A DNA stretch of 54,688 nt, from IMG/VR virus record IMGVR_UViG_2541047774_000008, positions 1 through 54,688 of that record; one strand, 5' to 3'. The stretch's first letter is position 1; every line of letters starts with the position of its first letter. Shown one piece after another: positions 20,589 to 20,790 of the stretch. The notes under the pieces were generated by a model that had not been told where the DNA came from, did not search any database, and saw only the letters and a program-made list of their open reading frames with translations. Position numbers and translations under genes: made by a program. Source of the stretch: a virus. Its lineage: Duplodnaviria; Heunggongvirae; Uroviricota; Caudoviricetes.

Positions 20589-20790
20589 CCCCCCCCTGAA
20601 TGCAATTTTTCGTATATATATATACAAAACAGTGCGGGTTATGCGGGTTAGCGGGTTATCTTCGCGTGCTAAGTATTTTTTACTCTTTAATATCAATACG
20701 TTAAAAAACAACGTATCTAAATATCAGCCAGAATGTAACCCGCAAGACATTCAAAATAACCCGCAAACACCACTCAAATAACCCGCAAAA
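20589..20790. repeat. iteron / AT-rich region downstream of island terL (candidate cos or ori)
   Basis: C8 tract 20589-20596, (TA)n 20613-20624, three GCGGGTTA repeats 20634-20658, palindrome ATACGTT-N7-AACGTAT, three inverted TAACCCGCA repeats at 20736, 20757 and 20779. Confidence 0.55.

Follow-up and report, generated by a model that had tools for sequence, protein, structure and literature searches.

The repeat block and its host island

The 54,688-nt stretch of phage DNA analysed here (the window; IMG/VR record IMGVR_UViG_2541047774_000008, positions 1 to 54,688, Caudoviricetes) carries a prophage that is interrupted by a phage-inducible chromosomal island (PICI) of the capsid-forming type (cf-PICI). 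Near one end of this island lies a block of short repeats, at 20589-20790. We interpret it as a Rep-binding origin module of the GCGGGTTA family that belongs with a Pri-Rep initiator of the DUF927 type, and in this island most probably as an orphaned half of an origin; we put the probability of this interpretation at roughly 0.65. Coordinates are those of the whole window unless another locus is named. The parts of the block are as follows.

20589-20596, plus strand: C8 run, part of a C-rich tract
20600-20632, plus strand: left flank ATGCAATTTTTCG-(TA)6-CAAAACAG, 78% A+T, conserved; candidate unwinding element
20633-20658, plus strand: three tandem iterons, TGCGGGTTA TGCGGGTTA (A)GCGGGTTA, nearly invariant across 10 islands
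20659-20735, no strand assigned: A+T-rich spacer (70% A+T, core 76%) with a T-tract and a match to the consensus of integration host factor (IHF)
20691-20703, inside the spacer: the IHF-consensus match, TATCAATACGTTA
20736-20787, minus strand: three inverted iterons TAACCCGCA at 21/22-bp spacing, equal to two helical turns

The first-pass annotation of this DNA had listed a C8 homopolymer, a (TA)n tract, three direct repeats, a palindrome with 7-bp arms and three repeats in the opposite orientation about 21 bp apart, and had placed them after the terL gene of the island, by the att end and distant from rep. All of this is borne out: besides the C8 run, we find (TA)6 at 20613-20624, the direct repeats at 20633, 20642 and 20650, the palindrome ATACGTT-N7-AACGTAT at 20696-20716 and TAACCCGCA at 20736, 20757 and 20779. 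The terL stop is at 20868, the att core at 20342-20355, and the block lies 8.2 kb from the rep stop (28989).

Six exact GCGGGTTA units are thus packed into 155 bp, three in tandem and three inverted on either side of a 77-bp spacer. The tandem units read TGCGGGTTA/TGCGGGTTA/AGCGGGTTA with a spacing of 9 and 8, and the final two overlap by one base. The window holds 10 copies of the GCGGGTTA 8-mer against 1.85 +/- 1.46 expected (none of 100 shuffles reached 10), and 6 of these 10 fall inside the block; a second iteron-like cluster was not found elsewhere in the island. The A+T content of the (TA)n flank and the spacer compares with 51% for the whole island. A search of 20560-20830 gave no DnaA box within one mismatch of TTATNCACA. 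The block belongs to no Rfam family: the sole match, to a microRNA family, had a score of 21 bits, below the gathering score of 119, and a reading as structured RNA was therefore dropped. A reading as promoter or terminator was also set aside, as no terminator-like site was found and the one weak promoter-like match lies at the att core.

The island measures about 15 kb (20342-35326) and was identified from the listing of open reading frames (ORFs) and from Pfam scans; a RefSeq region with 99.5% identity supports its identification as a cf-PICI. Its main genes all lie on the minus strand.

33918-35177, minus strand: int
30401-30700, minus strand: DUF4222 gene, just upstream of rep and overlapping it
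28989-30404, minus strand: rep
28282-28707, minus strand: SSB
25716-26861, minus strand: capsid
23890-25323, minus strand: portal
23158-23598, minus strand: HNH
22513-23010, minus strand: terS
20868-22529, minus strand: terL

Further island genes encode AlpA-like regulators, a BRO-N protein, a protease and a connector. The block sits in a non-coding tail of 512 bp, which runs from the terL stop to the att end. Once the island is excised and circular, att and int come next after this tail, in that order.

Homologous blocks and their Rep alleles

A blastn search of 5426 complete E. coli genomes detected the block in 363, in every case on the chromosome. Its conservation was assessed on an alignment of 10 homologous blocks, in which 41 iteron columns are invariant and 3 variable, against 39 and 50 of the columns between iterons (Fisher p = 1.5e-8). 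This suggests that the iterons are under selection. Also invariant are (TA)5, the flanking CAAAAC and the T-tract. The consensus WATCARNNNNTTR is matched in 10/10 homologues, with TACG, CATG, TGCG, TATG, TACA, TGTG or TGAG at its N positions; such constancy of the consensus positions next to variable N positions is the pattern expected of a genuine IHF site. The first two inverted iterons are conserved in all blocks, and the third in distal-type blocks (see below) except that of island L006. In L006 (strain 2015C-4136CT1, positions 17074-17139 of that locus) the tandem part has expanded and comprises nine CGGGTTAT units of 8 bp. Only the window and the near-identical L001 have the palindrome, whose left arm overlaps the conserved IHF-consensus match; for lack of conservation it was rejected as a functional site. 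What appears as C8 in the window is an interrupted C-rich tract in relatives (CCCCCTCC, ACCCCTCC or CACCCTCC). This tract accompanies the block only at the island end and is absent from L002 and L007, where the block abuts rep.

The placement of the homologues relative to rep is informative. Window positions 20615-20768 are 80% identical to positions 17001-17154 of L002, an O157:H7 cf-PICI, and there the block lies just 3' of a rep gene of the DUF927 type; in L007 a homologous block is likewise found directly 3' of a DUF927 rep. Both islands have the block contiguous with a second GCGGGTTA block, made up of four spaced direct iterons, an A+T-rich stretch and two tandem inverted iterons. In L001, L004, L005, L018, L019 and L020 the second block is beside rep and the distal block 7-10 kb off, opposite int. 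Two blocks are present in all nine sampled islands with a DUF927 Rep, and in seven of these they are split, 2-10 kb apart.

Islands with the block occupy at least eight att sites (prophage terL, phoQ/roxA, clpS/cspD, hpt/gcd, by dinD, thiM/rcnR, yejO/tRNA-Pro and yifB/ilv) and have differing integrases. They carry terminase genes of HK97 type, of lambda type (terS only) or none at all. Judging from this distribution, the block is independent of both Int and terminase.

The iterons beside rep were then compared with the type of Rep. For the DUF927 Rep with an L001-type C-terminus, GCGGGTTA iterons were found beside rep in 8/8 sampled islands, all of which also carry the block described here. 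Islands with a D5-primase Rep (L003, L008, L009 and L011; the type includes EcCICFT073) have GGTAGAYA iterons at this place, and the five islands with a RepA/AAA_25 Rep (L012-L016) all have CYCACTTTT. The P4-alpha-like Rep of L006 is accompanied by TGTTCACC iterons (27000-27216 of that locus), identical to the type-1 repeat of P4. In L012 (6600-6815) and L009 (16020-16270) we also considered TTGACACTTTT(TCGCG) repeats as a distal origin block, but they look operator-like and are without an A+T-rich centre, and the candidate was rejected. In each case a small gene lies downstream of these repeats, and the rep-side iterons of the two islands are of unrelated sequence.

The strongest indication of what reads the iterons comes from two islands, L010 of E. 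albertii and L023 of E. coli, the Reps of which are 88-100% identical to that of L001, except for the last ~110 residues, where identity drops to 30-42%. In both islands the rep-adjacent and the distal block alike consist of TGTCCCA/GTGGGACA iterons in the same architecture; although the iterons differ, these blocks still have the flank CAATTTTTCG-(TA)n-CAAAAC as well as the C-rich tract. Since the iterons in both blocks switch along with the C-terminal ~110 residues, both blocks would be read by the same Rep, and the reader is, on this comparison, most probably the C-terminal domain. The sample for this covariation is Escherichia only. A scan of genome contigs with the N-terminal domain of Rep for wider homologues gave only three Escherichia/Shigella loci, and a protein search for wider Rep homologues only fragments annotated as 'DNA primase, partial'.

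Packaging and integration sites

The first-pass annotation had left open whether the block is an ori or a cos. A block directly after terL might indeed be a cos, or a cosB-like array bound by TerS, for the HK97-type terminase of the island or for a helper phage, and there are several likenesses. Lambda cosB has IHF sites. The HK97 cos, too, has a C/G homopolymer-like tract by A+T-rich DNA, and its G-run (GGGGGGGGGGATCAAATCTTC) is similar to the C8 region when the latter is read on the minus strand (GGGGGGGGATCGAAATTTC). Furthermore, the minimal site of HK97 TerS (CTAACCCGATTTTTT; PMC11331095) shares TAACCCG with the iteron TAACCCGCA. In HK97 (AF069529), however, cleavage takes place beyond the G-run and ACCGCCGCC, 49 bp upstream of terS. 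The block matches neither this linkage to terS nor the order and orientation of the elements, and its C8/G8 run has no ACCGCCGCC-like cut motif beyond it. For these reasons of order and cut motif we judge the G-run likeness and the TAACCCG match to be probably coincidental.

The distribution of the block argues against a packaging site as well. The terL-terS-HNH region of L002 is 87% identical to that of the window, yet its block is ~6 kb from terS, beside rep, and nothing else of the terL-distal tail is common to the two. The block is also present in islands without terminase genes or with unrelated ones, so that it is not inherited together with terS, terL and HNH, and its iterons switch with the Rep C-terminus. 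Moreover, a better candidate with the HK97 order of elements is found upstream of terS.

22895-22980, minus strand: candidate island cos, just upstream of terS, with a G-run (22965-22980), CGACCGCCTCC (22923-22933) and a T-tract (22895-22906)

This candidate lies 2.1 kb from the block and has a mean column identity of 95% across six cf-PICIs. As the block moves independently of terS and terL and a candidate cos is available elsewhere, the cos half of the initial proposal is very unlikely to hold. The HK97 TerS site spans +15 to +29 (PMC11331095); at the equivalent position (AF069529 15-29) the candidate TerS site of the island reads GTGCACGGGAATTTTTTT. The prophage has its own counterpart of this cos candidate at 36902-36952, which is more HK97-like than that of the island (GGGGAGGGGCGGGTCAAATCT...GTACCGCCGCC).

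The features at the two island ends bear on a further alternative, in which the repeats serve integration.

20342-20355, no strand assigned: left copy of the att core, TTGGTAAGAATATT, from the junction alignment with intact phage terL
35313-35326: right copy of the att core, TTGGTAAAAAAATT, from the same alignment
20380-20392: IHF-consensus match, between the left GCAATACAC pair and the core
20424-20444, plus strand: candidate integrase arm-type sites, two GCAATACAC copies (20424 and 20436) at 12-bp spacing
35162-35182: partner GCAATACAC pair (35162 and 35174), also at 12-bp spacing

The att core is 250-450 bp away from the block, and the Int protein has an arm-binding domain (Pfam Arm-DNA-bind_3, P4-type); since tandem direct repeats with IHF sites are typical of attP arms, the iterons could be arm-type sites for the tyrosine integrase or excisionase of the island, as part of attP/attL. 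This is very unlikely, and the least probable of the explanations weighed here. The same block accompanies different integrases at the att sites listed above and is located mid-island in L002 and L007, and no GCGGGTTA cluster is present near the other island end. Copies on both arms, as expected of integrase-specific sites, are instead seen for GCAATACAC, of which a pair stands ~70-150 bp away from the core at either end. Annotated arm repeats of P4 attP share this layout of tandem pairs at 12-bp spacing flanking the core; by this analogy the GCAATACAC pairs are likely the integrase arm-type sites.

Alignment of both junctions gives TTGGTAA[A/G]AA[A/T]ATT as the consensus of the att core. The island splits the terL gene of an HK97-like prophage into parts at 19612-20337 and 35147-36340, a junction common to 34 of the 5426 complete E. 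coli genomes, and the insertion should inactivate packaging by this prophage. Elsewhere in the prophage, an ORF at 45741-46817 (minus strand) contains clusters of CGTGACA-type repeats at 46380-46430 and 46640-46690, which resemble the lambda-type origins inside the O replication gene. Within the island, a 168-aa ORF that is possibly an accessory gene occupies 27148-27654 on the plus strand, opposite to the remaining genes. It matches no Pfam family, and L001 lacks it.

Resident Rep and replication origin

Several features agree with a replication origin. The origin of PICIs, which is modelled on that of Staphylococcus aureus pathogenicity islands (SaPIs), is described as lying 3' of rep, with a set of iterons on each side of an A+T-rich region, and it has been shown to be functional in EcCICFT073 (PMC6092414, Fillol-Salom et al. 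2018). The block has this layout, and the origins of EcCICFT073 and of SaPIs resemble it also in that their iterons are specific for the Rep allele. The canonical place immediately 3' of rep is taken by the homologous block of EcCIEDL933-like islands, as seen in L002 and L007. The EcCICFT073 origin differs in its iterons (GGTAGAYA rather than GCGGGTTA) and in having one block against two in the DUF927 islands. The window block itself departs from the EcCICFT073 and SaPI pattern by its distance of 8.2 kb from rep, its position at the end opposite int and its non-cognate Rep. In kind, then, the 'ori' of the first-pass annotation stands, on the grounds of layout, of homology to blocks 3' of rep and of covariation with the Rep C-terminus. 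The comparisons of aligned blocks and islands show a conserved iteron module of origin type, with a specificity that appears to follow the C-terminal part of the DUF927 Rep.

The architecture and the precedents of SaPIs, PICIs and P4 suggest the following steps: the DUF927 initiator would attach to both iteron sets, tandem and inverted, through its C-terminal domain of ~110 residues; the A+T-rich spacer would be bent by IHF; and melting of the (TA)n/A+T-rich DNA would allow loading of the helicase. DUF927 islands would thus work with one block directly 3' of rep and another that is either contiguous or 2-10 kb off, at the island end opposite int.

The Rep of the present island is of another type. 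It is a protein of 471 aa (28989-30404, minus strand) with an N-terminal Toprim-like 'Pri' domain and a helicase of AAA_25/RepA type (Pfam AAA_25, E = 3e-44); neither DUF927 nor its C-terminal domain was found in the window. RepA/AAA_25 Reps pair with CYCACTTTT, so the iterons of the block do not match the island's own initiator. In the nearest RepA-type islands the rep DNA is 97% identical, a CYCACTTTT origin of ~200 bp extends from rep to the next gene, and a GCGGGTTA block is lacking. The window keeps only 34 bp between rep and the next gene, and ~168 bp of the CYCACTTTT origin are deleted.

28958-28989, minus strand: remnant of the RepA-type origin, with CTCACTG, CCCACTTTT and CCCACTTTT left (alignment with L015, L016 and L013)

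The deletion lies between two 25-bp direct repeats (CTCCCCACTTTTACTACCCACTTTT), and the missing DNA was probably lost through recombination between them. Among E. coli sequences, the 12 that match the junction best are all free of the deletion, each match being split around the extra ~168 bp. The island may consequently be replication-defective, that is, unable to replicate on its own. Outside the rep module it is 91-98% identical to the DUF927 island L001, and it shares the att site of that island. This identity of the backbone implies that the GCGGGTTA block came with it and that the rep module was exchanged. In our interpretation the block would have arrived with the packaging and integration backbone, after which the rep module would have been swapped for a RepA/AAA_25 allele whose origin core was later deleted. 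The orphan block, intact in sequence, would not be read by the resident Rep and would fire only with a matching DUF927 Rep in trans. The experiment implied at first, with the island Rep supplied in trans, would probably fail, given that this Rep is another allele that goes with other iterons.

One could alternatively suppose that the block is a working origin in this very island, read either by the resident RepA-type Rep or by way of what all Rep alleles share, namely the DUF4222 protein or the N-terminal domain. With the RepA-type core gone, the island has no other complete iteron/A+T-rich structure, and the block also persists in L003 and L006, which have a non-cognate Rep. In addition, an N-terminal domain of ~125 residues and the overlapping DUF4222 gene are common to all four types of Rep (DUF927, D5-primase, P4-like and RepA). 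This domain (window 30006-30404, residues 1-133) belongs to no Pfam family and has an invariant TEVIIFAGSDAW motif. Its AlphaFold model (predicted local distance difference test score, pLDDT, 91.7) is most similar to DnaG and the Toprim domain of T7 primase, with Z ~7. On the basis of this model, the domain would be the 'Pri' part of the protein and is not likely to be a sequence reader. It also occurs, together with DUF4222, in many islands (L008-L016) without a GCGGGTTA cluster, and was rejected as the reader of the iterons. As iteron type tracks the variable C-terminal part of Rep, and as the window rep gene has 97% DNA identity with rep genes that have CYCACTTTT iterons beside them, we regard a working origin in this island as improbable.

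P4 offers the closest parallel for two separate blocks. Its GenBank annotation (X51522) puts crr on the 3' side of alpha and ori at a distance of 4.7 kb, and marks type-1 repeats in both. P4 and the DUF927 islands thus have in common two clusters of one iteron, of which one is 3' of the primase-helicase gene and the other kilobases off. The cluster 3' of that gene is near attP in P4, and further likenesses are direct and inverted iterons, the nature of a satellite replicon and the P4-type integrase. Both clusters are found in L001, L004, L005, L018-L020 and L023; the window has only the distal one of the two. Both also follow the specificity of the initiator in the relatives, by the change from GCGGGTTA to TGTCCCA. 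The block nevertheless lacks sequence similarity to P4 ori and crr (type-1 repeats TGTTCACC), and the initiators differ, alpha in P4 against a DUF927/Cch-like protein.

Two other roles of the distal block have some probability, though not much. In the first, the block does bind Rep but acts as an auxiliary element in cis, either by crr-like enhancement or looping or by incA-like titration or handcuffing, and the rep-adjacent block is the origin. DUF927 islands always have a second block beside rep, which has an A+T-rich centre too; P4, by the annotation of its record, needs two separate iteron loci; and the published PICI/SaPI origin is the region immediately 3' of rep (PMC6092414). Against this, the block has the features of a start site, with an invariant (TA)n, a spacer of 70-76% A+T and a conserved IHF consensus, and the annotated origin of P4 is the very locus that is distant from the rep gene.

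Plasmid P1 (oriR/incA) and other iteron replicons likewise have a further array of the same iterons, which flanks or accompanies the initiator gene and modulates replication. The incA locus has no unwinding element; it differs in this from the block, with its (TA)n tract, A+T-rich spacer and IHF consensus. In the second role, which we hold to be unlikely to about the same degree as the auxiliary one, the distal block is live and possibly the true start of a P4-like split origin in PICIs and cf-PICIs of the DUF927 type, and orphan islands such as the present one, its own origin core being lost, would hitch-hike in replication on the matching Rep of a co-resident DUF927 island.

Some observations weigh against the orphaned origin half that we prefer. 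Of the 11 islands with a GCGGGTTA block, three (the window, L003 and L006) keep it despite a non-cognate Rep; it is fully intact in two of them and expanded in its tandem part in L006. Such persistence could reflect a function independent of Rep rather than a recent relic. That the C-terminal domain of Rep reads the iterons is what we infer from the covariation, and the match of this domain to Pfam HTH_56 ('Cch HTH') scores 20.1 bits, below the curated cut-off of 26.2. The covariation itself comes from one alternative iteron family, as L023 and L010 are from two species but carry essentially the same island. Moreover, EcCICFT073, with GGTAGA-type iterons, is the only PICI of which the origin has been tested experimentally (PMC6092414), and sequence alone cannot separate a start site from a crr- or incA-like role of the distal block.

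On the other hand, blastn finds one copy of the block each in the genomes of L003 and L006. Because every sampled DUF927 island of the GCGGGTTA type carries the block, a cognate island is unlikely to be present in these genomes. The single copies favour a relic of a module swap over use in trans, though they are no proof of it.

As a kind of element the block is already known, from the iteron origins of PICIs and SaPIs and from ori/crr of P4. The cf-PICI literature that we searched makes no mention of iterons or of a replication origin. A text search of the literature for the iteron sequence gave only unrelated primer matches; the sequence itself may already have been published, for example among the E. 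coli PICI iterons in Fig. 2a of PMC6092414. The split two-block arrangement of the DUF927 islands, the swappable specificity of the C-terminus and the orphaned blocks appear to be undescribed in the texts searched.

PICI origins have been described as one iteron region that directly follows rep on its 3' side, and these results depart from that picture. The comparison indicates that the DUF927-Rep lineage, including the prototype-like O157:H7 cf-PICI, has an origin of two blocks, in many cases separated by as much as 10 kb. A swappable C-terminal domain of Rep, ~110 residues long, seems to determine which iterons are recognised, and exchange of the Rep module would leave mismatched origin blocks behind. 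For work on cf-PICIs this provides testable coordinates for both origin and cos, together with a warning that the present island may be replication-defective. If it is true that orphan blocks fire in trans, this would add a dependence between co-resident satellites.

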